From a virus (Duplodnaviria; Caudoviricetes): a stretch of DNA of 64,000 nt. Shown here piece by piece: positions 2,273 through 32,395 of this stretch. Position 1 is the first letter of the stretch. Every line of letters starts with the position of its first letter. The notes beneath the pieces were generated by a model. It was not told where the DNA came from, ran no database searches, and worked only from the letters and a program-made list of their open reading frames with translations. The stretch spans positions 1,147 to 65,146 of IMG/VR virus record IMGVR_UViG_3300032287_003123; one strand, given 5' to 3'. Position numbers and translations under genes: made by a program.

Positions 2273-2300
2273 CAGCCTGGGTACGCTGATAAACTGCCCA
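2273..2300 (+). ncRNA. small H-type pseudoknot element upstream of endolysin
   Basis: CAGC-CTGGGTAC-GCTG-ATAAAC-TGCCCA; compensatory variant of the CTGAGCA/TGCTCA family. Confidence 0.6.
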
Positions 2301-2319
2301 TTTACTTGATGGAGGAATA

Positions 2320-3102
2320 ATGGCAGTAAAAGGTTCGGTAGAGGCAATCATTGAGGTTGCAAAGAAAGAAATTGGAACTATTGAAGGTCCAAAAGATAAC
2401 GAAACAAAGTATGGCGCATGGATGAAAGTAAACTTCCAACCTTGGTGTCAGTCATTTGTTTCTTGGTGTGCAATGACAGCAGGGGTTGCAAAGTTCCCTA
2501 AGTCAGCATCAACAGTTGCAGCATCAGATCAGTTTAAGAAAGAAGGTCGTTGGGCAGATGCTCGTAATGACGATCCAACTCCAGGAGACTGGATTTATTT
2601 TGATTTCCCAGAAGATGGCGTAAATCGTATTTCACACGTAGGTCTTTGCATTAAGAACAATGGCGATGGAACTATCCAAGTTATTGAGGGAAACACTTCA
2701 GGAACTGCTAAGGGGGACCAACGCAATGGCGGAATGTGTGTTGAAAAGACTCGTGGTTATGTAAAAGATAACAAGAAGAAGTTGATGAATGCAGTTGTTG
2801 GTTGGGGTCGTCCAGTTTATGCTGGTGAAGAAAATGCACCATTGCTTTCAAAGCGTGATGCAGCACCTGCAGCAGCAACAACTTCTCCCGCAAAAAAGGC
2901 AGCACCTGCAGCATTTAAAACATTAAAGGTGGGATCAAAGGGGCAAGCAGTTAAGAATGTTCAAACACTTCTTGATCTTAAGGCAGATGGTGATTTTGGT
3001 CCAGGTACCGAAAAGGCTGTAAAAGCATTTCAAGCATCTAATAAGTTAAAGGTTGATGGCATTGTAGATGTTATTACTTTTAAGGCATTAAAGGCTAATT
3101 AA
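2320..3102 (+). CDS. endolysin: CHAP amidase plus C-terminal peptidoglycan-binding domain
   Basis: PWCQSFVSW, SHVG, IEGNT; C-terminal LKVGSKG..V..VQ..L...ADGDFGPGTEKAVKAFQ. Confidence 0.88.
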   Translation: MAVKGSVEAIIEVAKKEIGTIEGPKDNETKYGAWMKVNFQPWCQSFVSWCAMTAGVAKFPKSASTVAASDQFKKEGRWADARNDDPTPGDWIYFDFPEDGVNRISHVGLCIKNNGDGTIQVIEGNTSGTAKGDQRNGGMCVEKTRGYVKDNKKKLMNAVVGWGRPVYAGEENAPLLSKRDAAPAAATTSPAKKAAPAAFKTLKVGSKGQAVKNVQTLLDLKADGDFGPGTEKAVKAFQASNKLKVDGIVDVITFKALKAN

Positions 3103-3104
3103 GT

Positions 3105-3680
3105 ATGGTTAACTCAAAAAATGAATTTTTATTGCCAAAAGATTTAGAAGGACCTGGCATATCTTCTTATCAAGGAATTTGGGCTGATTCAGAAGAAACT
3201 ATTTTTGAATTAGAAAATTATTACAATCTAGATTCTTTTGCGTCTTTAAATGAAATGTCTAAAGACAGTGATTCAATAAACCAAATACTAAAAAGGTATA
3301 CAAAAATACTTCAAATAATTGTTTTTGGATATAATTTTCATTTTGGAGTTAATGAAGGATTTTACATAAACGAAGATTCTTTTGTTTTAAAGTTTGAAGA
3401 TGGTGAAGAACGTCAACTTAGTTATGGTGGAGGCACACAAACTGGTAGATCAATGTGTGCAATTCTTTATTTAAATGATGATTATGATGGTGGAGAGATT
3501 GAATTTGTTAACTTTAATTTAAAAATTAAGCCTAAAAAGGGAACACTTTTACTATTTCCATCTAACTTCTTATATTCATATAAAGAAAATAAAGTAACAA
3601 ATGGAACTAAATATTCAATTGTTAACTTCATTCACGATAGACCAATTGACGAAATATCTAAGCAAATTTTGGAACAATAA
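3105..3680 (+). CDS. 2OG-Fe(II) oxygenase (prolyl-4-hydroxylase-like) fold, metal ligands apparently lost
   Basis: LYLNDDYDGGEIEF...LLLFPSN...GTKY; no HxD or distal His at the expected positions. Confidence 0.7.
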   Translation: MVNSKNEFLLPKDLEGPGISSYQGIWADSEETIFELENYYNLDSFASLNEMSKDSDSINQILKRYTKILQIIVFGYNFHFGVNEGFYINEDSFVLKFEDGEERQLSYGGGTQTGRSMCAILYLNDDYDGGEIEFVNFNLKIKPKKGTLLLFPSNFLYSYKENKVTNGTKYSIVNFIHDRPIDEISKQILEQ

Positions 3681-3856
3681 TGCCTATATATGATTACAAA
3701 TGCACACAGTGCTCTAGTACTGTTGAATACAAAAGAGATTTTGGCGACAGCACTGAGCCTGTGTGTTGTAATCAAACAATGCAACGCCAATGGCAATCGC
3801 CAGGGGTACTTTTTAATGGTTCTGGATTTTATTCCACAGACAACAGAAAGAAGTAG
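3680..3856 (+). CDS. FmdB-family zinc-ribbon protein (not in ORF track)
   Basis: MPIYDYKCTQC...PVCC...GVLFNGSGFYSTD. Confidence 0.85.
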   Translation: MPIYDYKCTQCSSTVEYKRDFGDSTEPVCCNQTMQRQWQSPGVLFNGSGFYSTDNRKK

Positions 3857-3862
3857 TACAAT

Positions 3863-4093
3863 ATGAATACAATGATTGAACAAGAAGAGCAAGTATGGCT
3901 TTTAGACGCAACAGATCGTTGTGATAGATGTTCTGCTCAAGCATACGTAAAGGTAATTGGAAACTCTGGCGAACTGCTATTTTGTAGTCATCATTACAAT
4001 AAGGTAGTAGATAATGCTGTGGGATATGACAAAATCATGAAGTTTATGGTTGAAATAATTGATGAAAGAAAGAGACTAGAAAATGGGCAATAA
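3863..4093 (+). CDS. actinobacterial/actinophage small Zn-binding protein
   Basis: LDATDRCDRCSAQAYV...LLFCSHH. Confidence 0.7.
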   Translation: MNTMIEQEEQVWLLDATDRCDRCSAQAYVKVIGNSGELLFCSHHYNKVVDNAVGYDKIMKFMVEIIDERKRLENGQ

Positions 4094-4226
4094 TAAGCAT
4101 CCATTTAATGCTACGCAAATTAAAGATGGCAGAATTGTTAAGTTAAGAAAAGATGGTCGCATTAAGGCTGACCTAGGTCCATATTATGCTAATCATAATA
4201 AAGTAAAACCAAAGAGAGTTGGCTAA
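4083..4226 (+). CDS. small basic hypothetical protein (47 aa, not in track)
   Basis: MGNNKHPFNATQIKDGRIVKLRKDG...; fills the gap between flanking genes. Confidence 0.55.
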   Translation: MGNNKHPFNATQIKDGRIVKLRKDGRIKADLGPYYANHNKVKPKRVG

Positions 4227-4230
4227 TCGT

Positions 4231-4638
4231 ATGTATGAATATTATGTTCGTAAAGTAGAGAATGTCGTAGATGGGGATACCATTGACGTTCTTATTGATC
4301 TGGGTTTTGATATCCTATTTGCATCTCGTGTAAGACTGGCTGGTATTGATACCCCTGAGTCTCGCACAAAGGATATTGCCGAGAAAGCACTTGGTCTTGA
4401 ATCAAAAGAATATCTTAAGAAGCATTTAAAGGATGCAAAGTCTGTTATTATTAAAACTGAGAAGATGGACTCATCAGAAAAATATGGGCGTATTCTTGGT
4501 TGGCTTTATGTTAATGGAGACACAGAGTCTGTTAATGATAAGATGATTAATGATGGATATGCTTGGGGATATATGGGTGACACAAAAGTTAAAGACTTTG
4601 ATGCACTTGCTAAAGCCAGAAAGAAGTCTGGAAAATAA
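4231..4638 (+). CDS. thermonuclease (SNase-like)
   Basis: VVDGDTID, RVRLAGIDTPE, KYGRILG. Confidence 0.92.
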   Translation: MYEYYVRKVENVVDGDTIDVLIDLGFDILFASRVRLAGIDTPESRTKDIAEKALGLESKEYLKKHLKDAKSVIIKTEKMDSSEKYGRILGWLYVNGDTESVNDKMINDGYAWGYMGDTKVKDFDALAKARKKSGK

Positions 4639-5220: not shown

Positions 5221-5254
5221 TCTGCTATAATCATGTTAGACAATAGGAGGCATC

Positions 5255-7514: not shown

Positions 7515-7744
7515 TGTATACATATGATATGCGTAAGGCTGTACACTCAATCATTCCTCCAAAAAATTTTGGTGTTCAAATTATTGACAATGATAGTTTT
7601 TTAACTATTAAACTTAATGAAATGGATTTTTTACCTATGGCTCATGATGAAAAAATAGAGGCTGTTGAGTATGTTGCAAGAGTAAAAAAAGCATTAGAGC
7701 AAAATGGTGCAATTGTTTTGGTTACAAGAGAGGCAGTTAAATGA
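7514..7744 (+). CDS. hypothetical protein
   Basis: translationally coupled ORF. Confidence 0.6.
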   Translation: MYTYDMRKAVHSIIPPKNFGVQIIDNDSFLTIKLNEMDFLPMAHDEKIEAVEYVARVKKALEQNGAIVLVTREAVK

Positions 7745-9309
7745 AAGATATTGTTGTAGTTGGTGGTGGTTCTGCAGGATGGATGACAGCAGCAATACTA
7801 ATAAAATCTTTTCCTGAAAAAAATATTTATGTACTTGAAAGCAATGATATTCCACGAGTTGGGGTTGGAGAAAGTACATACGAAGGCATAAACCATTATC
7901 TTGAGTATTTAGGAATTGACAGAGAATCATTTTTTGAATATACAAATGCTACAGTAAAACTTGCAATTCAATTTAGAAATTTTTATAAAGAATCTGGTGA
8001 GCCAGATTTCATTTATCCTTTTGGAGCGCCTACCTTTACTAAAGAAGGATCATCTTTAGATGATTGGATGGCAAGAAAAAATTTAGATAAAACTATACCA
8101 GTTACAGATTTTGCAGAGTCATATTTTCCAGCAGCACACCTAGTTAAACATAATAGGCTAACTGATAAAAACCATTATGGTAATTTTACACAAACTCTTA
8201 ATACTGCATTACATTTTGACGCAATAAAGTTTGCAGATTGGCTAAAGAATAATTATTGTTTGCCACAAAATGTTAAGCAAATTGTAGGAACTATAGAAAA
8301 AATTACCACAAACGACAATGGTGTAGATAAGTTATTCTTGTCGGATGGAACAACTGTTTCTGCAGATCTATTTGTTGATTGCACTGGGTTTAAAAGTTTA
8401 TTATTAGACAAAACTCTTAATGAAGAATTTATTTCTTATACTGATCTACTTCCTAATACAAACGCATGGGCAACACAAATACAGTATAAGGAACCAGAAA
8501 TTGAAATTGAAAATGTTACAAGATGCACAGCCCTAAAAAATGGCTGGTGTTGGAATATACCTCTTTTTTCTAGATTAGGTTCTGGCTATGTATATTCTGA
8601 TAAGTATACAACACATGAAGATGCACTTGAAGAATTTAAGAAATACTTAATGACAGAGTTAAAAATACCAAGAACAAAAGAAGAAGTTGAAAGCCTAGAG
8701 TTTAGGAATATACAGATGAGAGTTGGTATTCATAAACGTACTTGGGTCAAAAATGTAGTTGCAATTGGTCTTGCTGCAGGTTTTATTGAGCCACTAGAAA
8801 GTAATGGGCTTTTTACTGTTCATGAATTTTTGTTCTGTTTAATCAAAACATTACAGCATGATAAAATTTCTCAATGGGATAGAGACGTATACAACAAGGC
8901 TACAAAAAAGATATATGACAACTTTGTAGAGTTTATTAGACTACACTATGCTCTTAGTTTAAGAGATGATTCTGAATATTGGAAAAATAATTTCAATAGA
9001 ACATTTTTTAATGATGAAAACAGTTCAAGTGTTTTTAGTCACTTAAATGACATGGCAACAATTAAAATGAACTCAATAAGTTCAATGCCATTAAGAGGTG
9101 GAAATAGTTGGATTGCAACTGGGATGAACTATTTTATTCTTGATAGCGTTGCTTTGGCTTTTTCTGATATACTGTATGGTAATCTGGATAAGGAAAAAAC
9201 AAAAATAGTGTTTGAAAATTTAGATAATAACAAAAAAATATGGAAAAATTTAGCACTTGAATCAGAAACTTCGTATCAATACATAAAAAGGAAATATCAT
9301 AGTGAATAA
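7741..9309 (+). CDS. flavin-dependent tryptophan-halogenase family protein (PrnA-like)
   Basis: GGGSAG FAD motif, VGEST, ATVK catalytic Lys, WCWNIP, FIEPLES. Confidence 0.88.
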   Translation: MKDIVVVGGGSAGWMTAAILIKSFPEKNIYVLESNDIPRVGVGESTYEGINHYLEYLGIDRESFFEYTNATVKLAIQFRNFYKESGEPDFIYPFGAPTFTKEGSSLDDWMARKNLDKTIPVTDFAESYFPAAHLVKHNRLTDKNHYGNFTQTLNTALHFDAIKFADWLKNNYCLPQNVKQIVGTIEKITTNDNGVDKLFLSDGTTVSADLFVDCTGFKSLLLDKTLNEEFISYTDLLPNTNAWATQIQYKEPEIEIENVTRCTALKNGWCWNIPLFSRLGSGYVYSDKYTTHEDALEEFKKYLMTELKIPRTKEEVESLEFRNIQMRVGIHKRTWVKNVVAIGLAAGFIEPLESNGLFTVHEFLFCLIKTLQHDKISQWDRDVYNKATKKIYDNFVEFIRLHYALSLRDDSEYWKNNFNRTFFNDENSSSVFSHLNDMATIKMNSISSMPLRGGNSWIATGMNYFILDSVALAFSDILYGNLDKEKTKIVFENLDNNKKIWKNLALESETSYQYIKRKYHSE

Positions 9310-15791: not shown

Positions 15792-15794
15792 AAG

Positions 15795-15866
15795 TACCCC
15801 TGGCAGGACTTGAACCTGCGACCTACACCTTAGAAGGGTGTCACTCTTCCACTGAGTTACAGAGGT
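15795..15866 (-). tRNA. tRNA-Arg(UCU)
   Basis: anticodon arm ACACC-CTTCTAA-GGTGT; GGTTCAA T-loop; acceptor stem pairs. Confidence 0.9.
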
Positions 15867-15867
15867 T

Positions 15868-15942
15868 TGGAGCCTTCTGTCAGGATTGAACTGACGACAT
15901 CTCGCTTACAAGGCGAGTACTCTACCACTGAGTTAAGAAGGC
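15868..15942 (-). tRNA. tRNA-Thr(UGU), CCA encoded
   Basis: CTCGC-CTTGTAA-GCGAG anticodon arm. Confidence 0.92.
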
Positions 15943-15943
15943 G

Positions 15944-16015
15944 CATCTCCAGAGAGAATTGAACTCTCGTTTACACCGTGAAAGGGTGTTGTCCTAACCA
16001 CTAGACGATGGAGAC
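15944..16015 (-). tRNA. tRNA-Glu(UUC)
   Basis: ACACC-CTTTCAC-GGTGT anticodon arm. Confidence 0.9.
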
Positions 16016-16016
16016 T

Positions 16017-16092
16017 TGGCTGGTCTGGCAGGCTACGATCCTGCGACTTCCGAATTAACAGTTCGGCACTCTACCAACTGAGTTACAGACCA
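16017..16092 (-). tRNA. tRNA-Asn(GUU), CCA encoded
   Basis: CCGAA-CTGTTAA-TTCGG anticodon arm. Confidence 0.9.
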
Positions 16093-16096
16093 ATAG

Positions 16097-16170
16097 TACA
16101 ACAGGTAGGACTTGAACCTACGATAACCGAATTATGAGTTCGGGGCCTTGACCAACTTGGCTACTGTTGC
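16097..16170 (-). tRNA. tRNA with CAU anticodon (Met or Ile2)
   Basis: CCGAA-CTCATAA-TTCGG anticodon arm. Confidence 0.85.
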
Positions 16171-16660: not shown

Positions 16661-18220
16661 TCAATTACTTCCACTGTTTTCCTCCTCATATTTTTTAAAA
16701 ATTGTATTACCAATTATCATGTAATCTATTGGAGAACTATAAAATAAATCAATTGCATTTTCAGGATATCCAGCAATTGGTTTTTTATTAACATTTAAAC
16801 TAGTATTTAAAATTATTGCACATCCCGTAATATTGTAGAACTCTTCTATTAGTTTTCTAAAATAGCCATCATCTTTTTCAACTGTTTGTACTCTGCAAGT
16901 ATTATCAACATGTGTAATTGCAGGAAAATCATTTACAATAAAATTATTTGTGAATAACATATAAGGATCTTTATTTTCAAACTCAAAATAATCTTTTATA
17001 TTTTCAGACAAAACTGAAGCACCAAATGGTCTATAAAACTCTCTGTTTTTTACGGTGTTTATTATTTTTTTCCCATCTTTTATTCTGGGATCCATTAGTA
17101 TAGAGCGGTTCCCCAATGCTCTTGGCCCAACTTCTCCATGTTCTTGATACCAACCAACTATTTTACCTTCAGATAGTAACTGTGCAACCATTTTAATTGT
17201 TTCATCAGTGGGTTTGTCTTTTGGTGCAATATCATTTTGGCAGTAAGGAAAGTTTTCTAGTTTAAACTTTGGTAAATTATTTAACTGTCTTAAAAGTTCA
17301 ATTGCTCCTAGGCTTGTTCCTTCATCACTTGAATGTGGAGCAACAATAAGGTTCTTAAACTTATTTAAAATTTTTGTGTTCCATACAACATTTTGAGCCA
17401 CACCACCAGAATATGAAACAACATCATCGGTATCTGCGTATTCTAAAAATAAATTAACTATTAAATCTCCAACTGCTTCATGAACCGTTCTAATCCAATC
17501 AAGTTTATTGTGTGCAGCAAGTAGCAGATCGCCTTTATGTTCAATCCATCTTTCAAAATTAAAAATCTGATTTACTTCATCAATTGAATATTCTTTTGTT
17601 TTGTTTAAAAAATCATTATCTACTTTTCCATAAGACTGCAGCCCCATAATTTTTCCAGCGTTATCATGAATATTATTAGAATTAACTCCAAGCATCGGTC
17701 CAATTTCACCCATAGTAAGACCAATAGATCCGTTTTCTATTCTTCCATACCGAACAATTTTGTTGTTTTTAAATACAGTATAGGTTCTTCCTTGACCAAC
17801 TCCATCAATAACTATTTTTGTTGATGGCAAATTATTTTCATCTTCTAGCATCCAAGTTGACATAGCATGAGCATAGTGATGATTTAAATGCCATAACTCT
17901 TTTACTCCATGAACCGCAAACATATTTGCATGGTCTGGAACTTTATAATAGTTTTTGTTATAATCTCTTAAGGCCTCAAACCCATCAGGCTCTTTACCAC
18001 CATTAAACTTTGTGGCATCATAATCAATTGCTACTTGATCAATTTCTTTAATTTCAAAGTTAAATAATTTTTCAGCATCTTTTATGATTTCCCAAATTGT
18101 TTCATACCAAAAATGTTTTTCTTGTTTTGTTCTTTCAAATTTATGATAATATAGTTTTTCTCCATCAAAATAAGAAACATTGTTATCGTGATACATCAAA
18201 CTAATACCCAATAACTTCAT
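16661..18220 (-). CDS. carbamoyltransferase (NodU/CmcH family)
   Basis: HHYAHA, IDGVG, GKIMGL, SGGVAQN, GPRALGNRSIL, RPFGAS, LNTSLN. Confidence 0.92.
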   Translation of the reverse strand: MKLLGISLMYHDNNVSYFDGEKLYYHKFERTKQEKHFWYETIWEIIKDAEKLFNFEIKEIDQVAIDYDATKFNGGKEPDGFEALRDYNKNYYKVPDHANMFAVHGVKELWHLNHHYAHAMSTWMLEDENNLPSTKIVIDGVGQGRTYTVFKNNKIVRYGRIENGSIGLTMGEIGPMLGVNSNNIHDNAGKIMGLQSYGKVDNDFLNKTKEYSIDEVNQIFNFERWIEHKGDLLLAAHNKLDWIRTVHEAVGDLIVNLFLEYADTDDVVSYSGGVAQNVVWNTKILNKFKNLIVAPHSSDEGTSLGAIELLRQLNNLPKFKLENFPYCQNDIAPKDKPTDETIKMVAQLLSEGKIVGWYQEHGEVGPRALGNRSILMDPRIKDGKKIINTVKNREFYRPFGASVLSENIKDYFEFENKDPYMLFTNNFIVNDFPAITHVDNTCRVQTVEKDDGYFRKLIEEFYNITGCAIILNTSLNVNKKPIAGYPENAIDLFYSSPIDYMIIGNTIFKKYEEENSGSN

Positions 18221-25862: not shown

Positions 25863-26177
25863 TAGTCAAAGTACCCTTCTGCCCATAGGCCTTGCAAGAA
25901 GTCAGAGGCTTGTGTAAGGTTTCTATGTAGCCAAGGATCATCGTCAGAATTCACGGTAGTTAATGCAGAATCAATGGCAAGAACCATATTATCTAAATCA
26001 TCTCTCTCATATCCTAGCATTACTCACCCCAATACTTTAGAATGGTTTCAAGGGTATTACAGATATGACAGTCACAAGGGTCTCCCCCCATGTTGTCCAT
26101 AAAATCTATATGAGAGAAGTTATCTTCATAGATAGCCTCTACTAATTCAGAGATGGTTTGAGGTTTGAAGGTTTGGG

Positions 26178-26465
26178 TCATGCTATTTCCTTTTCATAGG
26201 CAGGTAGGCTTACTACCGTCAATTCTAGCATTTCATCAGGATATCTGTCAACTACCCAGTTCAAGGCTTCCCCAGCAGTTTTGAAATCAGTAGCAGTACT
26301 ACTAGTTCCATAACCGTTAATGGTGGCTTCCCAGCAATCAGTCCCACCTGGTGAGACAGAATAGTTCATTTCATATATTGCTACTTGTTTGGTCATATTA
26401 ATATTATAGTGGTTTGGACTGACATCTGCAAGTCCCGTGAATTTTTTACTAAAGACCTTAATCAT
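26178..26465 (-). CDS. hypothetical protein (true start probably MTKQ, leaderless)
   Basis: promoter 26403-26431 lies inside the annotated 5' part. Confidence 0.55.
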   Translation of the reverse strand: MIKVFSKKFTGLADVSPNHYNINMTKQVAIYEMNYSVSPGGTDCWEATINGYGTSSTATDFKTAGEALNWVVDRYPDEMLELTVVSLPAYEKEIA

Positions 26466-26537
26466 AAATAGTCCTCAGAAATATCATGATTTTTTCGACC
26501 CGCATTTTTATGCATTGCATTGCATTTTTATTTATTG

Positions 26538-26611
26538 CGATCCGTACGGGACTTGAACCCGTGACCTCTACCGTGACAGGGTAGCGAACTAACCAACTAT
26601 TCTAACGGACC
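26538..26611 (-). tRNA. tRNA-Asp(GUC)
   Basis: CTACC-CTGTCAC-GGTAG anticodon arm; GGTTCAAGTCC T-arm. Confidence 0.92.
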
Positions 26612-26616
26612 AAATG

Positions 26617-26647
26617 GTGAGCAGTTTTAATTCATGCTCAGGAAATT
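26617..26647 (-). ncRNA. H-type pseudoknot element between DUF932 stop and tRNA-Asp
   Basis: AATTTC-CTGAGCAT-GAATT-AAAAC-TGCTCAC. Confidence 0.6.
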
Positions 26648-26650
26648 GTA

Positions 26651-27667
26651 TCATGCTAGTTGCATAACATTCTGCACAACTTTTAGCAGACGATTTTTTT
26701 CTGCGTTGATAGCAGGGTCAAATCCACTTGCACTTGCAAGGATAGATTCGTTATTGCCACCACGAGCAGAACGGTACCAGTCTAGGCGCTCAGTAAGTGC
26801 ATTGAAAGCGCCCCATGCAGAGCCAGCAATCATGCCGTTAAATTCGCCAGTGTAAATATCGTTGATAATATCAACTTTATTTTCCCACTTCTTGACCGCA
26901 CCCTTAGCGTCCTTCTCAGGCTTAGGATAAGCAGCAAGAATGATGTCGTTGAATTGCTTAGCAGAAACTTCTTTCTCAATCATAGCCTTAGCCATAATAT
27001 CAAATTCGTCCATGTAAGTATTAGCAAGACCAAGAGTCTCACGAGCAATCTGCACTTTACCATTGGCAGTCTGCGTGTGGCGAATCTTGAATGATTGCTT
27101 GACACCATTCTTCTTCTTGCGTGAGCCTAGTGCAAGATTAAGAGTGTTAGCGCACACTACACGAACGGGTGTAATGCTTGCTTGAATAGCGATTGAGCCA
27201 TCGTGTGATGTGTTGATGAGCAAATAAGTCTTTACCTTATCTGCAACACCGCTAGGGTCTAGGATTGTTTCACGCTCTAATGCAAGAGAGCCGAATACAA
27301 CACGACCACCCTTGATTGCGCCTGCGGTTTCCCAACGACCACCGCCGTCTAGGATATTATCACCGAATGAGAATAAATCTTCATTCTGCAATACATGATA
27401 GCGCTCACCAACGACACCAAGAATATCAGTCTGGGTGTTATCGGTAGGATTTGTACGCAAAACATATTGGTATGCCTTGTCGCTAGTTAGATGTGATGGG
27501 GTTTCCAAATCCTCTAAGCGAACATTCCAACCGTTTAGATTTGCTGCTTCCAACATTTCTGCGGTTGTTTTTTCCTCAGTGAATACGGTACCCAATCCAT
27601 GCCATGCTGGTTCACGGAAAGATGCAAAAGATGTCTTACCGTTTTGTGTTTCTAGGTCATGTGCCAT
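26651..27667 (-). CDS. DUF932 / TIGR03299 phage-plasmid protein
   Basis: MAH...PAWHGLG, LGVVGERY..LQN, WETAG, NTSHDGS, RVVCANTL. Confidence 0.88.
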   Translation of the reverse strand: MAHDLETQNGKTSFASFREPAWHGLGTVFTEEKTTAEMLEAANLNGWNVRLEDLETPSHLTSDKAYQYVLRTNPTDNTQTDILGVVGERYHVLQNEDLFSFGDNILDGGGRWETAGAIKGGRVVFGSLALERETILDPSGVADKVKTYLLINTSHDGSIAIQASITPVRVVCANTLNLALGSRKKKNGVKQSFKIRHTQTANGKVQIARETLGLANTYMDEFDIMAKAMIEKEVSAKQFNDIILAAYPKPEKDAKGAVKKWENKVDIINDIYTGEFNGMIAGSAWGAFNALTERLDWYRSARGGNNESILASASGFDPAINAEKNRLLKVVQNVMQLA

Positions 27668-27697
27668 GAGTGTTTCTCCTTTTTGTTTGTTTATACA

Positions 27698-27726
27698 ATC
27701 ATAACATGACCCACCGACAAATGCAA
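27698..27726 (-). promoter_or_regulatory. promoter TTGCAT-T-TGTCGG-N10-TATGAT (perfect PafBC/RecA-NDp match)
   Basis: directly upstream of the DUF932 gene. Confidence 0.75.
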
Positions 27727-27829
27727 ATCAGGATAGTTAAATAGGGGTAAATCGGACATTTTGGGGGTGTGATCAATATCACGTAATCGTAACTTGACAA
27801 TGACTGGTCATTCGGGTCGAAAAATTTAT

Positions 27830-27993
27830 TAAGCCTTTTTCCATCATGCTTAGGATGTATGGGTTCTTACACCTGCCCAATAAGGTGGCTCTATAGTATT
27901 TCTATTATCGCCCTAATCAGCCTGGCGAAAAGTGAGCAGTTTACGTGGCCGTGCTCAGGGCCCTTACCTAGTTTATAGACATTCGGCATGTCT
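27830..27993 (-). ncRNA. tandem array of five small H-type pseudoknots
   Basis: five consecutive stem-loop + A-rich linker + loop-complement units (see findings). Confidence 0.6.
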
Positions 27994-28013
27994 TTTCATA
28001 GCCCCCTATGAAA

Positions 28014-28433
28014 TTAGTAGTCAACCTCGTCATAGTTAGTATCTACAACGTTTGAATCTTCATTCATGAGTTCAACGTGATATGAATTTACATTGAATTC
28101 AATTGTTGACAATATGTCATCAATGTCTTCACCTGATTCAACACATATGGTAAATGTATGGTCTACGGTCATAGTAACGTCATAGTTTTGTGATAACGTG
28201 AAGTCGCCAATCTTTGCAAGCGCTTGGGCCTGCTCCATGGAGATATTCTCTTCATTAAGTTCACTGCGGGTCCAGTCCTTTAGATCTTCCTTAAGTCTAT
28301 TAAGTGCTGCTGCAGTGTTCATGTCCCGCTGTGCAAGACGTGCATGTGATTCTTCTAGTTGAGTAATACGCAATGTGGCCTTGGCCAATTCATCACGTAG
28401 AAATGTCTCTGTTGCGTAGTTTACTGTATCCAT
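28014..28433 (-). CDS. hypothetical coiled-coil protein
   Basis: ORF track. Confidence 0.6.
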   Translation of the reverse strand: MDTVNYATETFLRDELAKATLRITQLEESHARLAQRDMNTAAALNRLKEDLKDWTRSELNEENISMEQAQALAKIGDFTLSQNYDVTMTVDHTFTICVESGEDIDDILSTIEFNVNSYHVELMNEDSNVVDTNYDEVDY

Positions 28434-28438
28434 AGGGG

Positions 28439-28702
28439 TTATTCCATTTCTTTCTCTAGTTGTTCAAATTCTTTGATGGTATTAATCATCTCATCCATTT
28501 GGTCTTTTGTCAAGCACACATTTGATACTAGTGTGGCAGTAAGTGAGGCAAGGTGAGCAGAATAACTCCAAATTGCCTCAATGAATTCTTGTTCTGTCAT
28601 TGATTCACGATGTTCGCTAATCTTTTTTGCCATTAGCATTGTGCTGAAGTCTGTAACTGCGTCGCCAGTTGCTTCTTGAATTTGTATTGCGGTGGATAGC
28701 AT
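28439..28702 (-). CDS. hypothetical protein
   Basis: downstream of promoter 28732-28760. Confidence 0.6.
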   Translation of the reverse strand: MLSTAIQIQEATGDAVTDFSTMLMAKKISEHRESMTEQEFIEAIWSYSAHLASLTATLVSNVCLTKDQMDEMINTIKEFEQLEKEME

Positions 28703-28847
28703 GAGGGCCTCTTTCTTTTTGGTTTAATATAAGTATATATCTCAGGACTGACAAATGCAATTTAAAACCCCGTGAATCTTAAATAGTGAGACGTAAACCA
28801 TGTGAGAAAGATCACACGGGTCGAAAAATTTTTGCGGGGAATTTATA

Positions 28848-28875
28848 GAGCAGTTTTACATCATGCTCAGGATGT
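28848..28875 (-). ncRNA. H-type pseudoknot element
   Basis: ACATC-CTGAGCAT-GATGT-AAAAC-TGCTC just after stop of ORF 28880. Confidence 0.65.
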
Positions 28876-28879
28876 TTAA

Positions 28880-29050
28880 TTACTTAGATGTTTTTACCAT
28901 TGCAAAGCGGTGTGCGCCGTTTGCTAACTGTAATGAAACTCTAGTTAGTTTAGCGTTGATAGGAGTAAAGTTGCTAATGCGACCTGTAATTCCTGTCTTG
29001 CTTGTTGTGAATAGATCACCGATTTGGTAAGTGTATCCGCCTAGTGTCAT
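28880..29050 (-). CDS. small SH3/KOW-like beta protein (not in track)
   Basis: MTLGGYTYQIGDLFTTSKTGITGRI...; RBS GAAAGG; paralog of 29700-29861. Confidence 0.65.
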   Translation of the reverse strand: MTLGGYTYQIGDLFTTSKTGITGRISNFTPINAKLTRVSLQLANGAHRFAMVKTSK

Positions 29051-29088
29051 TTTGGGTCTTGCCTTTCTGTTGTGGTGGTTAAAGTTGG

Positions 29089-29118
29089 TGAGCAGTTTTA
29101 GTTGTCATACTCAGGACA
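29089..29118 (-). ncRNA. H-type pseudoknot element
   Basis: TGTC-CTGAGTAT-GACA-ACTAAAAC-TGCTCA. Confidence 0.6.
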
Positions 29119-29133
29119 TTTCCCCGTTGGGAA

Positions 29134-29559
29134 TTATAGGTATCGTGCTACCGCATTGTATGTGGAAGTATTAACTACTTCCTCATCTGTCATCTTGAGG
29201 ATACGAATTGCGTTAGCAATTTCCTCTTTCTGACTTTGGTAGTCGTGTGAGTGTAGAACTACATAGTCTTTTGTTGGCTCTGCTGGCAGTTCCTTTTCTG
29301 ATACTGCTAGGTCAAAGTCAATGTTTAGGTTGTTGTTCCAAGAACGATATGAAGTGCGGAAGTTGGTTGCCTTCTTGATGTTTGCTACCGCATAGTCAAT
29401 AAGTTCCTTCTTATACTTCTCATAAGCCTTCTGATACTTTGCTTCATTGGCTTCTTGTGATGTCCAATCAAGTTCTAGTTTGGCAAGTGCGCCTTCTAGT
29501 GCCTTGATTACTTTAGGTGTAGCGATTTTAACGCTAATTGCTTTTCCTCTTGTTGCCAT
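29134..29559 (-). CDS. hypothetical protein
   Basis: RBS AAGGAG before MATRGK. Confidence 0.65.
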   Translation of the reverse strand: MATRGKAISVKIATPKVIKALEGALAKLELDWTSQEANEAKYQKAYEKYKKELIDYAVANIKKATNFRTSYRSWNNNLNIDFDLAVSEKELPAEPTKDYVVLHSHDYQSQKEEIANAIRILKMTDEEVVNTSTYNAVARYL

Positions 29560-29699
29560 TTTTTTGCTCTCTTTTCTTTGGTGGTTGATATTTATTATAG
29601 GGGGTGGAACTGACATTTCCCCCGAAGGGGGGAGAGTTCTTACTTACGACATTGGGCTAGAACACTCTCCTAAACTGCCCCTGTTTCGCTATGAAAGGC

Positions 29700-29861
29700 T
29701 TATGCCTTCCAAGTAGTCCAGCGTGGTGAGCCATTTACATCTAACTTGACACGAACTGTGTTCTTGTTAGTTGGCACAATTTCTACGATAGTGCCTGTAA
29801 TCTTAGACTTCTGTGAAGTATAAGTGTCGCCTACCTTGTATGTTGCTACGCCTACTGTCAT
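29700..29861 (-). CDS. small SH3/KOW-like beta protein (not in track)
   Basis: MTVGVATYKVGDTYTSQKSKITGTI...; RBS AAGGAG. Confidence 0.65.
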   Translation of the reverse strand: MTVGVATYKVGDTYTSQKSKITGTIVEIVPTNKNTVRVKLDVNGSPRWTTWKA

Positions 29862-30046
29862 TTGTTTCTCCTTTGTTTGGTTGATATATTAAGTCTAGCA
29901 TTTTCTACTGACATTTACAACATTTTTCCCTAAAAATCTCATATATTGAGATATATTGGGGTGTGATTTACATCACCTTCCGCCTGCCACCATCAGAATT
30001 GCCCCTACTATGGCTAAAATGATTATTAGATTATTCATTTATCCCC

Positions 30047-30769
30047 TCACTTTTTGGTTGCGCTAAACACTATATCAGATTTCTCATAAATACACAACTT
30101 GCAGGTGGCGCAGGCTGAGCCTTTCTGAGAGATAAGGGGGATAGCCTTTTTATTTTCAGGGCACTTAGCACCAGGCTTACCTGTTAGTGCCTTCATGTCT
30201 GCTTGCCCTATTAAGAAATTTTTGGCAAGGTATGCAAGGGATACGCCATGATTATTCTTGAGATCAATTCCCGTATCCTTATTCTCACTGTCTGTAGAAT
30301 AGTATAAAGATAGATTAGGAATGTCTTTAAGAATGAGCGCTGCAGATTTAACTCTTGTGTATACCCAGAATTGAATATCAGGATACTTATCCATAACTAC
30401 CTTCCACGCATATGCGTAGGTATCGTTAAAGAAATCGCCGTCCCAGTGGATACGAAATAACTTAGGTGCATTGCGCTTATCACAATCTGCATTAAATTCA
30501 TGAATCATTTCATTAAGTAGACGGACCATTGTTTCTCCGTCTGCGTCTTTAAGTAGTTCCCAGTTATGAAGTAGGTTAACCTTTACTGTTGGGAATACCT
30601 TTTCCAACTTGCCTGCGTAGCAAATAGTTTCGCAGATAGACGTTGCACCAGGACATGAAAAGTTTTTTCCTGCGGGTAATCCGAATGTGTTTGCGATACT
30701 TGCTTGTTTTCCATTTGGGGTGACGGCATTGGCGACTTTCCTATCTTTGCTTCTAAGTAATTTGGACAT
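30047..30769 (-). CDS. Gene product 88 (GP88)-like Fe-S/radical-SAM-related protein
   Basis: FGLPAG..SCPGA...C...CYA, FRIHWDGDF, FWVYTR, CP...C..C..C. Confidence 0.75.
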   Translation of the reverse strand: MSKLLRSKDRKVANAVTPNGKQASIANTFGLPAGKNFSCPGATSICETICYAGKLEKVFPTVKVNLLHNWELLKDADGETMVRLLNEMIHEFNADCDKRNAPKLFRIHWDGDFFNDTYAYAWKVVMDKYPDIQFWVYTRVKSAALILKDIPNLSLYYSTDSENKDTGIDLKNNHGVSLAYLAKNFLIGQADMKALTGKPGAKCPENKKAIPLISQKGSACATCKLCIYEKSDIVFSATKK

Positions 30770-30775
30770 GGTGGA

Positions 30776-30922
30776 TTACTCACTTTCTTTTTCTCTTTCT
30801 AATCTTAACATTAGGGACTGACATTTCTTTCGGTTGTATTTCTTTTTATTTGGGATCGCTGAGGCAGCATTAGAACGACGAAGTTCCATAAGTCTACGTA
30901 ATTCCTCAGATGTTTTTTTCAT
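30776..30922 (-). CDS. small basic protein (not in track)
   Basis: MKKTSEELRRLMELRRSNAASAIPNKKKYNRK. Confidence 0.55.
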   Translation of the reverse strand: MKKTSEELRRLMELRRSNAASAIPNKKKYNRKKCQSLMLRLEREKESE

Positions 30923-31003
30923 ACTTAATACTATCAGATTTAGGGGAAAAATACAAGTCTACGTAAAACGGACATTGCGGACAAAAGGGGCGGGTCGAAA
31001 ATT

Positions 31004-31264
31004 TTATTCGTCTAAATCTACATACACATATAAATCAACATATGCATCGTGTGCAAGTATTAGCGTATCACGTTCACCATATGTATCAGTGTATTCAATA
31101 AAATAATTATCGCCAGTTGAATCAGAATTAATTTCAATAACTTCAAGTAATTCTTCATCAACCTTTATTAGATCATCAACCATCAATGACCCTGGCGTTA
31201 ATTTATCTGCCCAGACTAGTTCCATGTTGTTTATTGTAGCAGTCATTTTAGTACCCCTCATCAT
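31004..31264 (-). CDS. hypothetical protein
   Basis: ORF track. Confidence 0.55.
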   Translation of the reverse strand: MMRGTKMTATINNMELVWADKLTPGSLMVDDLIKVDEELLEVIEINSDSTGDNYFIEYTDTYGERDTLILAHDAYVDLYVYVDLDE

Positions 31265-31586
31265 ATTCTAGTGAGAGTGGGAAGTCATCTGAGTCATCTT
31301 GCCAGTCATCTACTGGGTCAATGAAAGTGTGAAGGTGGTGCTGGTCTACAATAGCGTGTGCAGGTGCTTGCGTTGAGCCACGATATAGAATCTGAAAGTC
31401 ACCAACCTTTGGCATATCAATCATGCGGTCATAGTCCTCATCATAGTATGCGTCAATAGCCTCAATGCATGGTGCCACCATTTCTGCGGGTACTGGAGGA
31501 TAGTGATTACCCTTCAAGTGATATAGAATCTGAGTCTCCAAGTCCAAGACTGTATCTTTAATTCCTAGTGCTGTTACGCTTCCCAT
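31248..31586 (-). CDS. hypothetical protein
   Basis: HLKGNHYPPVP; AIVDQHHL. Confidence 0.6.
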   Translation of the reverse strand: MGSVTALGIKDTVLDLETQILYHLKGNHYPPVPAEMVAPCIEAIDAYYDEDYDRMIDMPKVGDFQILYRGSTQAPAHAIVDQHHLHTFIDPVDDWQDDSDDFPLSLEYDEGY

Positions 31587-31728
31587 TATTATTTCTCCTC
31601 AATTTCTGCGACATATACATCGCCTCTTTCAATGTTTCCATATTTTAATTTAAAATCAAAATTTTCAATTGCTTCATCATAGTTATCTGCTTCAACATTT
31701 ATGAAAGTAGTAAATTCATATACTGGCA

Positions 31729-31947
31729 TTATGCTCTTACCTGAACCCTTCCATCACGATAGAATACCTTAGTGTAACACTTACCTGTTGGTGTGTAGAT
31801 ATTGACTGTTGAGTATTCGTTAGCCAATCCCCAATCGGTAAAACGGAAAAAACTTTCCCATGCACCGAATTCATTTTCATAGCGTTGTGACCAATGAGGT
31901 GATTCCTCATAGTCATACTGGCAAGTTACTAGGTATTCATATTCCAT
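31729..31947 (-). CDS. hypothetical protein
   Basis: ORF track. Confidence 0.55.
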   Translation of the reverse strand: MEYEYLVTCQYDYEESPHWSQRYENEFGAWESFFRFTDWGLANEYSTVNIYTPTGKCYTKVFYRDGRVQVRA

Positions 31948-32366
31948 TAGTTATAGGTTCCTTTACATTCTGAGCAGAGATAATTAATTTTGCAGTAGCA
32001 ACCTACGGCAGTAGGCATATCAGTTTCATAGTAGTCATCATAGTAGGTCATTAGTTAGCCTCTTTCGTTAAGAATAGTTGGTCAATATAAGCATATTCTA
32101 TCATCGCTTCTACCTCTCGGTCAAGGTAGCAACGGAAGCAATAGAGTTCAGTTACATCTACTGCATTTTCATTACACTGCAAGCATACATCGGTCATGGG
32201 AGCCTTCTTTCTTTAATTAACTTGATATAAATATCTTATCAGGTTGGGGTGACATTTGCAATTCCGTAATCGGGCAATTTGGACAAGGTTCCCGTGATTA
32301 ATATCACATCGTACGTAACTTGTGGATAACCTGTGGACGACACGCCCGACTGCGGGTCGAAAATTT

Positions 32367-32395
32367 TGAGCAGTTTTAGATCTTGCTCAGGATTT
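32367..32395 (-). ncRNA. H-type pseudoknot element
   Basis: AAATC-CTGAGCAA-GATCT-AAAAC-TGCTCA right after a stop codon. Confidence 0.6.

Follow-up and report, generated by a model that had tools for sequence, protein, structure and literature searches.

The window, by which we mean the whole stretch of virus DNA analysed (64,000 nucleotides), carries seven copies of a minimal H-type RNA pseudoknot of ~28–30 nt, a fold that is strongly supported by covariation in both stems. The copies represent one conserved pseudoknot family, whose carriers are many unrelated phages with hosts across many bacterial phyla. Its position is tied to the stop codon of the upstream gene, which is reported here as new, and its spacing to the next start codon is loose. 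The seven copies and the genes adjoining them are as follows:

1744..2226, plus strand: HSP20-family gene, 5′ of copy 1
2273..2300, plus strand: copy 1, CAGC-C-TGGGTA-C-GCTG-ATAAAC-TGCCCA; E = 1.9e-7
26537..26611, minus strand: tRNA-Asp(GTC), starting 6 nt beyond copy 2
26618..26646, minus strand: copy 2, stem 1 TTC/GAA, canonical stem 2; E = 2.6e-9
26651..27667, minus strand: DUF932-family gene, whose stop codon anchors copy 2
27830..27857, minus strand: copy 4, a sub-variant, CATC-C-TAAGCA-T-GATG-GAAAAAG-GCTTA; partial match, E = 0.0078
27933..27962, minus strand: copy 3, GGCC-C-TGAGCA-C-GGCC-ACGTAAAC-TGCTCA; E = 6.2e-8
28848..28875, minus strand: copy 6, ACATC-C-TGAGCA-T-GATGT-AAAAC-TGCTC; E = 2.9e-11
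29089..29118, minus strand: copy 5, TGTC-C-TGAGTA-T-GACA-ACTAAAAC-TGCTCA; E = 8.3e-9
32367..32395, minus strand: copy 7, AAATC-C-TGAGCA-A-GATCT-AAAAC-TGCTCA; E = 2.8e-10

All seven copies listed in the initial annotation were confirmed, and no others were detected. A covariance model (R1) that scores stem 1 by its pairing and everything else by its letters gave exactly these seven matches in 64 kb when run over both strands with filters off: six with E-values from 2.9e-11 to 1.9e-7 and the seventh (27837–27857, minus strand) with 0.0078, the next best being 0.4. Four of the window copies are part of the R1 training alignment and match by construction; copies 2, 4 and 7 are outside it. The core CTGAGCA-N(4–14)-AAACTGCTC occurs four times in the window and zero times in each of 100 dinucleotide shuffles.

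Each of the seven copies follows the direction of the neighbouring ORFs, in agreement with the annotated sense of local transcription. The description of the copies as lying mostly just after stop codons applies to copies 2, 5, 6 and 7, and not to copies 1, 3 and 4. Copy 2 is located 3–6 nt behind the stop of the DUF932 gene; beyond it come CCATTT and, as annotated, tRNA-Asp. Copies 6 and 7 lie 4 nt behind the stops of ORFs of 56 aa and 78 aa, respectively, and copy 5 lies 15 nt behind the stop of a gene of 160 aa, with 38 nt between it and the next ATG. The distance to the stop codon is 46 nt for copy 1, which ends 19 nt before the ATG of the endolysin that it was said to precede, and 51 nt for copy 3. 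Copy 4 follows 75 nt past copy 3, with no ORF between them; its weak points are that loop 3 deviates (GAAAAAG) and that stem 2 has 5 bp, and the same AAAAAG-GCTC sub-variant was found at four other loci. A repeated promoter-like cassette, TTTTCGACCCG, is present 3′ of copies 4, 6 and 7, in the last case beginning 4 nt past the knot. No hairpin terminator was predicted on the minus strand between positions 26000 and 34500.

Stem 1 of the knot is 3–6 bp long and free in sequence, with C–G as the closing pair in every case. Loop 1, a single C or perhaps CU, spans the deep groove of stem 2, which consists of 5–6 bp (UGAGCA/UGCUC(A), core GAGCA/UGCUC). The junction between the stems is one base, almost never G, and the loop after stem 1 has the form (N0–3)AAAC. 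This AAAC-ended loop runs along stem 1 and, by analogy with luteoviral and coremin-type knots, probably forms minor-groove triples. The coaxial stack is mostly 10–11 bp long. The L1 C, U9, A14 and AAA are near-invariant (175–176 of 176 model matches, a set biased toward the consensus), and U9 does not vary even though 44 of 173 matches leave its partner unpaired. G is nearly missing from the two positions that follow stem 2 (2% each; 2 and 4 of 176). Placed there, it would form pairs with the CC preceding stem 2 and unravel the fold. Negative design against stem 2 extension accounts for this avoidance of G and for the preference for pyrimidines 3′ of the knot.

Covariation, whose absence the initial annotation named as a refutation, was found in both stems. 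Among 131 unique IMG/VR copies picked by stem-2 letters only, stem 1 has at least 3 bp in 127 and at least 4 bp in 101, versus 11% with permuted 5′ strands, and three of its positions show all four Watson–Crick pair types. The proposed free variation of a paired stem 1 holds for the IMG/VR copies. In the window, a weak point is that copies 2 (3 bp, or 5 with one mismatch) and 7 have only three contiguous pairs. Stem 2 was assessed in 176 unique matches of a model blind to its pairing. Its four inner pairs display 26 double compensatory changes, 20 single changes to G·U and no mismatches, so that 46 of 46 changed cells remain paired; G·U pairs are tolerated on the sense strand only. The stem-2 changes seen earlier in copy 1 (TGGGTA/TGCCCA) and copy 4 (TAAGC/GCTTA) were recovered, and copy 5 has TGAGTA/TGCTCA with one U·G pair. 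The doubly compensated TGGGTA...TACCC is present in at least 114 IMG/VR stretches and the broken combination TGAGCA...TACCC in 25; none of the 11 unique instances script-read from these 25 has a stem 1 of 4 bp. Real sequences gave 115 matches and reversed ones 2. Many IMG/VR matches come from relatives of the window phage: one or more protein clusters are common to the window and 75 of 120 loci. Copy counts are therefore not independent events. The knot matched no Rfam family, including preQ1, other riboswitches and ribozymes, which leaves its novelty intact; a published architectural relative is the coremin xrRNA of eukaryotic RNA viruses.

The spacer between stop codon and stem 1 is shorter than 4 nt in only 2 of 133 copies and measures 4–10 nt in 76, with a peak at 5–6 nt and a mode of 6. 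The closing C lies exactly 8 nt from the stop in 29 copies and closer in 3. A replicate set of independent copies, chosen by a different stem 2, gave the same picture (<4 nt, 1 of 73; 4–10 nt, 45 of 73; mode 6). The leading-edge geometry of a terminating ribosome matches this peak. About 40% of copies are more than 10 nt from the stop, and roughly one quarter, as well as copy 1 of the window and one copy in a Vibrio phage, are more than 30 nt from any upstream stop. The median distance is 23 nt to the upstream same-strand ORF versus 123 nt to the downstream ORF. Knot orientation follows the genes across copies. A single genome may have as many as seven knots. The genes 5′ of them are diverse and unrelated, and no protein was found to be a conserved neighbour of the motif loci; the commonest upstream gene in related contigs belongs to the DUF932 family (18 of 117 upstream ORFs scanned).

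On the 3′ side, a same-strand tRNA (Asp, Arg, Ser, Leu or Gln) begins 3–13 nt past 19 of 193 copies, and no tRNA was found in the 60 nt upstream of any of the 193 or on the opposite strand. The same arrangement of knot and then tRNA was seen in the replicate set (8 of 100 copies; Asn, Met, Thr, Arg, Ile) and in Nostoc phage NMeng1. U-rich tails (five or more T among the first 8 nt beyond the knot) follow 42 of 193 copies (22%), compared with ~7% of random 8-mers, and 22 of 100 replicate copies. The next downstream ORF of at least 70 aa is on the opposite strand for 20 of 193 copies, in 9 cases within 60 nt. Some 70–80% of copies have no tRNA, U-tract or convergent gene behind the knot. The mean folding energy of the 32 nt 3′ of the knot (−2.73 kcal/mol) is close to that of shuffles (−2.60 kcal/mol). 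Metatranscriptome contigs touching the region are single-read-sized fragments and are uninformative about RNA ends.

Our preferred reading, which we hold tentatively and at somewhat below even odds, is that the knot is a protein-independent mechanical barrier capping the 3′ end of the upstream cistron. It would be set at the 3′ boundary of the cistron, at the nearest spot that a stop-bound ribosome leaves folded, and would mark and cap the upstream message with no need for a protein. The 3′ end itself may be made by a transcription stop in the following U-tract, by an RNase P cut at the adjoining tRNA or by an endonuclease cut farther downstream. From there 3′-to-5′ exonucleases would trim to the knot and halt, so that the stop codon and the coding region survive. 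We infer that the knot resists nucleases and sits at the 3′ end of stable RNAs, and likewise which enzymes are involved. The initial annotation had suggested exonuclease-blocking 3′/5′ caps, processing signals or protein decoys; the stop-codon anchoring, the tRNAs on the 3′ side only, the U-rich tails and the convergent downstream genes are circumstantial evidence for the 3′ cap or a processing boundary. A pure stabiliser, however, has no obvious need for invariant letters, and the closest published relative stops enzymes from the 5′ side, not from the 3′ side.

That relative suggests the main alternative, which we consider somewhat unlikely: a phage counterpart of xrRNA that blocks 5′-to-3′ enzymes (RNase J, or RNase E scanning from the 5′ end) and protects the RNA downstream, i.e., the next cistron or a tRNA array, as coremin does against Xrn1. 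The architecture and letters of the knot resemble coremin, it lies 5′ of the tRNA that opens an array in 19 of 69 cases, and a flaviviral xrRNA stops the bacterial RNase J1 in vitro (PMC5760640). Yet the knot is anchored to the upstream gene and not to the RNA it would protect, and the copies with a U-rich tail, and those with a convergent gene, have little or nothing downstream to protect. The hairpin hp2, needed for coremin resistance, is absent after the knot, as the shuffle-like folding energy indicates. A strong copy also occurs in a Vibrio phage; gamma-proteobacteria are not known to have RNase J, which counts against this explanation.

The stop-codon spacing could also indicate a ribosome barrier or insulator, an unlikely explanation in our view. 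With the stop codon in the A site, the knot would stand at the mRNA entrance of the ribosome and stop terminating, read-through or post-termination sliding ribosomes from entering the spacer; the downstream cistron would be uncoupled and downstream folds, such as a tRNA precursor, shielded from unwinding. The sharp lower bound of 4 nt and the mode of 5–6 nt in two independent sets fit this proposal, as does the adjacency to tRNAs. Counted from the P-site codon, the spacing puts the first stem-1 pair at roughly +11 to +13, where the ribosomal helicase is reported to act (Takyar, Hickerson and Noller, 2005). Frameshift knots of the −1 type use the same spacing, and coremin blocks scanning ribosomes. 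The same spacing is, however, expected if the knot merely escapes unwinding, the many copies more than 10 nt from the stop do not fit, and there is no obvious need for uncoupling behind diverse genes.

Quite unlikely, too, is a biochemically active RNA, i.e., a very small riboswitch-like aptamer, a self-cleaving motif, or a site that binds a protein or serves as its decoy. A pseudoknot with near-invariant nucleotides and carriers in many bacterial phyla meets the description by which sophisticated RNAs are flagged (Weinberg et al., 2017; PMC5737381), and the invariance of U9 and the near-exclusion of G from the junction point the same way. The occurrence of as many as seven copies in one genome, each behind a different kind of gene, the lack of a conserved neighbouring protein and of Rfam riboswitch or ribozyme matches, and an anchoring to stop codons that is unexpected for an aptamer or ribozyme argue against it. 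None of the results favours a protein decoy or self-cleavage.

Very unlikely is a tRNA-like punctuation mark, in which the stem stack plus A-C-C(A) mimics an acceptor/T arm and RNase P or another tRNA-processing enzyme cuts polycistronic phage RNA at the knot. RNase P is known to accept the pseudoknotted tRNA-like ends of viruses as substrates. Of 138 copies, 24 have ACC after stem 2 and 15 have ACCA, many more than base composition would give, and the knot stands at the head of tRNA arrays with spacers of 3–13 nt, which resemble inter-tRNA spacers. Most copies, however, are without CCA, about 9 of the 15 ACCA cases are tRNA-adjacent and mostly from one homologous DUF932–tRNA-Asp context, there is no T-loop, the stack is mostly 10–11 bp long and not 12, and negative design already accounts for the pyrimidine preference and G avoidance. 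Finally, a repeat that arose by chance or a site that acts at the level of DNA (operator, promoter, recombination site) has negligible probability, even though TGAGCA...TGCTCA is an inverted repeat and copies adjoin the promoter-like cassette in the window phage: it is contradicted by the covariation of a free-sequence stem 1 interleaved with that repeat, by the 20 changes to G·U that would be A·C on the opposite strand, by gene-directed orientation, and by the shuffle and reversed-sequence controls, and the annotated RNA structure is instead strongly backed by the covariation of both stems in hundreds of copies from other phages.

The knot resembles the coremin xrRNA and is outside the definition of that family. 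Coremin (xrRNA-C) and its Watson–Crick variant xrRNA-WCC occur in beny-, cucumo- and other eukaryotic RNA viruses and were described by Dilweg, Olsthoorn and co-workers, who searched RNA viruses only (PMC6546385; PMC10520033; PMC10321173); the word “phage” appears zero times in PMC10520033, where the coremin 20-mer is printed as GUCCGAAGACGUUAAACUAC. In vitro, Xrn1 and scanning ribosomes are halted by coremin, which also promotes −1 frameshifting, and it follows the last ORF at a distance of a few nt, for example 8 nt in SPlV5 (PMC6546385; PMC10321173; PMC10520033). Both elements have a free-sequence hairpin of 3–5 bp with an obligatory C–G loop-closing pair, a one-base pyrimidine L1 that is not substitutable, and an A-rich linker ending in AAAC before the 3′ strand of stem 2, and both are modelled as H-type with adenosines in the stem-1 minor groove. 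A GUCC start and a GACGUUAAACU stretch are also shared by phage copies such as ...CGTC-C-TGAGCA-T-GACG-TTAAAC-TGCTC. The phage loop, in contrast, has 8 nt (CUGAGCAN) and is not YGAD or YGNNAD, stem 2 has 5–6 Watson–Crick pairs versus about 3, largely non-canonical, in coremin, and a single junction base is present with no CUAC spacer end. Coremin needs hp2 for Xrn1 resistance, whereas no hp2 lies behind the phage knot, and the carriers are DNA phages of bacteria, hosts without Xrn1.

Luteoviral −1 frameshift pseudoknots (BWYV/PLRV type) share with the phage element the compact H-type fold, an L1 of 1–2 nt whose first base is C, a single base extruded at the junction, an A-rich loop beside stem 1 and a distance of 5–9 nt from the codon in the ribosomal A site (luteoviral features summarised in PMC10321173). 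The phage stem 2 is twice as long, and the phage knot stands behind a stop codon instead of a slippery heptamer, with no overlapping −1 frame; X_XXY_YYZ ending 4–9 nt before stem 1 was found in 7 of 173 copies versus 2 of 173 at a control position. The preQ1-I aptamer and the T4 gene 32 operator pseudoknot are similar in size, H-type topology and A-rich loop 3, but the phage knot lies behind genes and not in a defined 5′ leader, has many copies per genome and has different conserved letters.

Known 3′ stabilisers in bacterial or phage mRNA include REP and intercistronic hairpins and the hairpins left by RNase III on T7 early mRNAs; in MALAT1, a triplex lies directly 5′ of an RNase P cut at a tRNA-like fold. 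These are plain hairpins or a U-rich triple helix and have no sequence in common; the phage knot is one conserved pseudoknot family with a putative stabilising effect. Common to all is a structure just behind the coding region that would stop 3′ exonucleases, and the MALAT1 triplex before its tRNA-like RNase P site parallels the knot 3–13 nt before real tRNAs.

The initial annotation had described seven copies of an H-type RNA pseudoknot of about 28-30 nt (hereafter, the knot) in the window, and all seven are present:

2273, plus strand: copy 1, between the HSP20 gene and the endolysin gene
26618, minus strand: copy 2, between the stop codon of the DUF932 gene and tRNA-Asp
27933, minus strand: copy 3
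27830, minus strand: copy 4
29089, minus strand: copy 5
28848, minus strand: copy 6
32367, minus strand: copy 7

They were recovered by R1, a covariance model that treats stem 1 as structure and everything else, stem 2 included, as sequence. The next match in the window appeared only at E = 0.4, and three of the seven copies lie outside the training set of the model. The exact form of the core motif occurs four times in the window versus zero times in 100 shuffles.

Read from 5' to 3', the window copies consist of a stem 1 strand (3-5 bp, with C as its last base), a single C, TGAGCA or a related sequence, one base, the 3' strand of stem 1 starting with G, 0-4 bases followed by AAAC, and TGCTC(A) or the matching variant. 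Copy 4 deviates, with GAAAAAG in place of the AAAC-type loop. Stem 1 is 3-7 bp long among the IMG/VR copies listed. A single base spans the deep groove of the 6-bp stem 2, while a stretch of four to seven bases that ends in AAAC runs along a stem 1 of 4-5 bp; this is the most compact geometry possible for an H-type pseudoknot. The U that opens stem 2 (position 9 in alignments A2 and A3) is invariant in 176 of 176 matches listed, although the base opposite it is other than A in 54 of 173. This pattern points to a tertiary role, or to a loop 1 of two bases, and not to a sixth pair. In two copies (L062:6625-6673, plus strand; L071:3081-3144, minus strand, in the fetched loci), a further hairpin of about 15-30 nt is inserted at the one-base junction, as is typical of structured RNA families.

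The fold is supported by covariation in both stems. IMG/VR was scanned with the two conserved halves of stem 2 alone, with no demand on stem 1, and yielded at least 120 stretches. Among the matches listed, stem 1 has at least three contiguous pairs in 127 of 131 unique copies and at least four in 101 of them; after permutation of the 5' strands among copies, a stem 1 of at least 4 bp remained in only 11%. All four Watson-Crick pair types occur at stem-1 positions 1-3, and C-G closes the stem in 129 of 131 pattern hits and 172 of 176 unique R1 hits listed. Alignment A1 was preselected for pairing, so that only the variety of its pair types, and not its pair counts, is informative.

R1, which contains no stem-2 pairs, found 186 hits (176 unique) in the 120 fetched loci, counted among the matches listed. 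The inner four pairs of stem 2 contain 46 changed cells in these hits, all of them still paired: 26 double Watson-Crick replacements, 20 single changes to G.U and no mismatch. The doubly compensated form TGGGTA...TACCC was found in at least 114 IMG/VR stretches, with stem 1 in 71 of the 80 unique instances among the matches listed. The uncompensated form TGAGCA...TACCC was present in 25 stretches; none of the 11 unique instances listed reaches 4 bp in stem 1, and three related ones stop at 3 bp. For the two-wobble mix TGGGTA...TGCTC, with 31 stretches, stem 1 is present in 10 of 29. A scan of the fetched DNA for the geometry plus AAA in loop 3 gave 115 listed hits, 21 of them with a non-canonical stem 2, versus 2 in reversed DNA. 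A generic H-type scan allowing G.U returned hundreds of hits on both strands, and motif-anchored tests were used instead.

The flanking ORFs are both co-directional with the knot in 136 of the 193 copies listed. Since a sense-strand G.U pair corresponds to A.C on the complementary strand, and since the copies follow gene direction, the element is an RNA pseudoknot. The proposal of the initial annotation that it is an RNA structure and not a DNA site thus holds. Also, G is nearly excluded at the two positions after stem 2; by pairing with the preceding CC, a G there would reduce the knot to a simple hairpin, and we read this exclusion as negative design.

The window, with a G+C content of 36%, covers most of its source record, which comprises 65,146 bases and is 59% complete according to CheckV. 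The portal protein is ~45% identical to portals of large Streptomyces siphoviruses, and a class II ribonucleotide reductase, an endolysin and an HSP20-family protein are encoded. Other features are as follows:

7741-9309, plus strand: Trp-halogenase-like enzyme
15794-16170, minus strand: cluster of five tRNAs (Met, Asn, Glu, Thr, Arg)
16661-18220, minus strand: carbamoyltransferase-like enzyme
53382-55130, plus strand: protein with Mtd_N (major tropism determinant) domain

The Mtd_N domain hints at a possible target of a diversity-generating retroelement. Near-identical DNA was found in 20 rows of public runs, most of them labelled as freshwater metagenomes, while megablast of 10 kb of the window gave no match among cultured phages. 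Four RNA runs yielded only fragments of ~150-270 nt, in which neither transcript ends nor sequences spanning a knot were seen and which therefore weigh neither for nor against any role.

A scan of the whole window against Rfam 15 at gathering thresholds returned only the six tRNAs that were also identified by ARAGORN. The knot has no match in Rfam 15, in line with the novelty anticipated for it. The motif was not found in the phage literature searched, including the available parts of PMC10690425, PMC5737381 and two 2026 preprints, and a full-text search for the core word with pseudoknot and phage retrieved only a hammerhead paper. The knot may sit unnamed among the 8,495 candidate IMG/VR RNAs in the supplements of PMC10690425, a source available in part.

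Single strong copies (R1, E 1e-8 to 1e-11) were detected in phages, cultured or named, whose hosts differ widely. These include Mycobacterium phage Labelle and Microbacterium phage Count; cyanophage S-RIM4, Synechococcus phage S-EIVl and Nostoc phage NMeng1; Lactobacillus phage phiAQ113, Paracoccus phage ParMal1 and Vibrio phage D456; crAss-like phages cr7_1 and cr8_1; and one Microviridae genome. In the annotated phage records, the knot begins a few bases past an annotated stop codon and in gene sense, with the exception of the Vibrio phage, where the annotation of a small ORF is doubtful. The Microviridae copy (L434:597-630, OM869566.1; E 3e-8) lies 24 nt past a peptidase gene of a 6-kb ssDNA phage; the knot is therefore not confined to tailed phages. 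The cr7_1 copy (within L259:577-940, NC_055895.1 20629-20992; E 8e-9) has a fully compensated stem 2, TAGGCA/TGCCTA, and lies inside an annotated tmRNA, between the T-arm/acceptor 3' half of a tRNA-like sequence and tRNA-Cys. This tmRNA annotation may be spurious; if it is not, the knot belongs to a tRNA-related RNA in this phage.

A protein cluster in common with the window occurs in 75 of the 120 IMG/VR loci among the matches listed, so much of the sample represents one freshwater phage lineage and the counts are not independent events. The scan of GTDB genomes gave 121 pattern instances, of which only 27 reach 4 bp in stem 1; the others correspond to chance level in ~600 Gb, and the instances were excluded from the counts. 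BLAST hits in Pseudomonas phage PPPL-1 and its relatives were rejected as knots. The PPPL-1 sequence TTAAAACCCCTCACTATTGCGACAC (L264:900-925), located between the scaffold and capsid genes, is a T7-type promoter that passes for the knot's 3' half in BLAST, and such promoters are a source of false hits in Autographiviridae. A hit in Serratia phage Sureiya (E 0.51) was rejected as well.

The position of the knot follows a rule. Among the matches listed, an ORF of at least 50 codons ends no more than 60 nt upstream of 133 of 173 copies. The spacer between its stop codon and stem 1 is shorter than 4 nt in only 2 of these 133 copies and measures 4-10 nt in 76, with a mode of 6; the closing C lies exactly 8 nt from the stop codon in 29 listed copies and nearer to it in 3. 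In a replicate set with a different stem 2 (100 copies from 111 further loci, among the matches listed), the spacer is below 4 nt in 1 of 73 and the mode is again 6. The distance from the knot to the next start codon is broad, with a median of 123 nt among the matches listed. The knot is tied to the preceding gene, the stop of which is often double. These genes are diverse (DUF932 in 18 and HSP20 in 5 of 117 listed, many belonging to no known family). No protein family is common to all knot loci, the top clusters being the knot-preceding genes in relatives of the window phage, and no conserved sequence besides pieces of tRNAs was found downstream. Tandem knots occur without an intervening ORF, three within ~180 nt in one locus (L108:7399-7577, plus strand) and two 75 nt apart in the window (27830-27962, minus strand), so the knot can also stand away from a stop codon; the spacers between them might hold small RNAs.

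With a stop codon in the A site and a spacer of 4-6 nt, the first pair of stem 1 falls at +11 to +13, counted from the first base in the P site. Ribosomal unwinding of mRNA reportedly begins at about that position, as described by Takyar, Hickerson and Noller in 2005. The knot would therefore stand as near to the stop codon as possible without being melted by terminating ribosomes.

On the other side, a same-strand tRNA starts 3-13 nt past 19 of the 193 copies listed, with five tRNA identities represented; no tRNA was found within 60 nt upstream of the 193 copies or on the opposite strand. Among first-of-array tRNAs in these loci, 19 of 69 listed have a knot in front, and a tRNA follows the knot in 8 of the 100 listed copies of the replicate set. 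The five-tRNA cluster of the window, with spacers of 0-4 nt, has no knot in front, unlike the solitary tRNA-Asp. U-rich tails follow 42 of the 193 listed copies (22%, versus ~7% expected), and the figure is 22% among the listed copies of the replicate set too. The next downstream ORF of at least 70 aa is on the opposite strand in 20 of 193 listed copies, within 60 nt in 9 of them. The adjacency of tRNAs, the U-rich tails and the opposite-strand neighbours all point to the 3' side.

A second repeat, the 11-mer TTTTCGACCCG, occurs six times in the window versus 0.34 expected:

26492-26502, plus strand
27813-27823, minus strand
28817-28827, minus strand
30991-31001, minus strand
32353-32363, minus strand
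33744-33754, minus strand

The minus-strand sites are followed, after ~20-33 nt, by (T/G)TTACG. At three of these five sites, a 14-bp palindrome GTGATAT(T/A)(A/G)ATCAC comes next and contains TGATATTAA. The latter looks like an extended -10 promoter, and the cassette resembles an early promoter/operator present in several copies. Three of the cassettes stand immediately behind copies 4, 6 and 7, and the combination of knot and TTTTCGACCCG recurs in the close relatives L009 and L073.

The element is a real, widespread and uncatalogued RNA family, marked by strong covariation, a position rule pointing to the ribosome and a one-sided link to tRNAs. Its function we infer. The reading we favour, and consider plausible though far from assured, is that of a protein-free barrier capping the 3' end of the upstream cistron. 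A 3' end would arise in one of three ways, namely termination at a U-tract, an RNase P cut at the neighbouring tRNA, or cleavage farther downstream; the knot would then halt exonucleases and so keep the stop codon protected. The main rival, which we regard as rather doubtful, is a phage exoribonuclease-resistant RNA (xrRNA), which would halt RNase J, or RNase E as it scans, and so protect the RNA downstream. The closest published relative, coremin (the xrRNA-C of plant and fungal RNA viruses, which blocks Xrn1), does work from the 5' side, and a flaviviral xrRNA halts the bacterial RNase J1 in vitro according to PMC5760640. However, the knot is anchored to the upstream gene, is followed by U-rich tails and convergent genes, lacks the second hairpin of coremin (hp2), and has a copy in a Vibrio phage.

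A ribosome insulator set beside the stop codon appears improbable, and an aptamer, protein site or ribozyme marginally more so; a search of positions 26400-33900 against Rfam 15 with E up to 10 returned only tRNA-Asp and one chance miRNA match, and no preQ1-I, pistol, hammerhead or twister. Adjacent tRNAs notwithstanding, tRNA-like punctuation is highly improbable: as a TYMV-type tRNA-like arm or RNase P model substrate the knot was rejected, because ACCA is present in only 15 of 138 listed copies, a T-loop is absent, and the stack is mostly 10-11 bp versus 12, and ARAGORN made no tRNA calls at the knots. A Rho-independent terminator, in which a U-tract directly follows a G+C-rich hairpin, was also rejected, given U-rich tails in only 42 of 193 listed copies and a 3' helix of 5-6 bp with a 10-14-nt loop. 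A simple terminator scan predicted no terminator hairpin on the minus strand of the window between 26000 and 34500.

We further put forward, as a speculative proposal, that the knot could be the first class of RNA in DNA phages that resists exoribonucleases and helicases, a counterpart of coremin by descent or convergence. It would be a protein-free directional roadblock at the leading edge of the ribosome, acting at cistron borders against sliding ribosomes as well as against RNase J, scanning RNase E and 3' exonucleases, in phages of at least six host phyla and in Microviridae, and splitting polycistronic messages into units of separate lifetime. A self-sufficient barrier of less than 30 nt shared by phages of mycobacteria, cyanobacteria, lactobacilli, Bacteroidota and Vibrio would amount to a general design rule of phage mRNAs, missed by annotation pipelines. 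If true, it would offer a handle on how phages control the lifetime of single cistrons inside long transcripts, link bacterial viruses to xrRNA biology, so far known only from eukaryotic RNA viruses, and possibly supply synthetic operons with a ready-made, host-independent part that stabilises or insulates genes. The lower bound of 4 nt between stop codon and knot is sharp; it is a natural read-out of ribosome reach on mRNA and allows direct tests of how termination and downstream structure interact.

Among known systems, the -1 frameshift knots of luteoviruses sit 5-9 nt behind a slippery heptamer and involve an overlapping -1 frame, whereas the phage knot follows stop codons; slippery heptamers near the knot show no useful enrichment (7 of 173 copies versus 2 of 173 at a control site, among the matches listed). 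Models of luteoviral and coremin knots are braced by loop-helix triples, according to the available part of PMC10321173, and by analogy such triples may exist in the phage knot. Class 3 xrRNA (PMC11702639) has a different, larger fold and was rejected as a relative.

The likeness to coremin, taken together with its variant xrRNA-WCC, is closer. The first hairpin of coremin (hp1) has 3-5 bp and a C-G loop-closing pair, for which G-C does not substitute, according to the accessible portion of PMC6546385. Stem 1 of the phage knot has the same form, with C-G in 172 of 176 matches listed. Both share a one-pyrimidine L1, a linker with AAAC, an H-type model and a position just behind an ORF, and the phage knot shares much of a 20-mer printed in the accessible portion of PMC10520033. 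The differences are as clear. The hp1 loop of coremin has 4 or 6 nt (YGAD or YGNNAD), while the phage loop has 8 nt, C-U-G-A-G-C-A-N, with U as its second base in 176 of 176 R1 hits listed. The coremin spacer, as far as the accessible sources describe it, comprises a conserved stretch of 8-10 nt with ...AAAC and CUAC and pairs non-canonically with the hp1 loop. The phage linker has AAA in all 176 listed R1 hits, then C in 168 and U in 169, but continues with GCUC, the Watson-Crick partner of the loop, instead of CUAC. In the same sources, hp2 lies directly downstream and is required for Xrn1 resistance, while the 32 nt after the phage knot fold at a mean of -2.73 versus -2.60 kcal/mol for shuffles (n = 183, among the matches listed), with no sign of an hp2-like hairpin. 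Finally, stem 2 of the phage knot is a long Watson-Crick helix and its carriers are DNA phages. Given that the YGAD/YGNNAD loop, CUAC and hp2 are absent, the knot is not a member of coremin but represents a new family of the same general kind.
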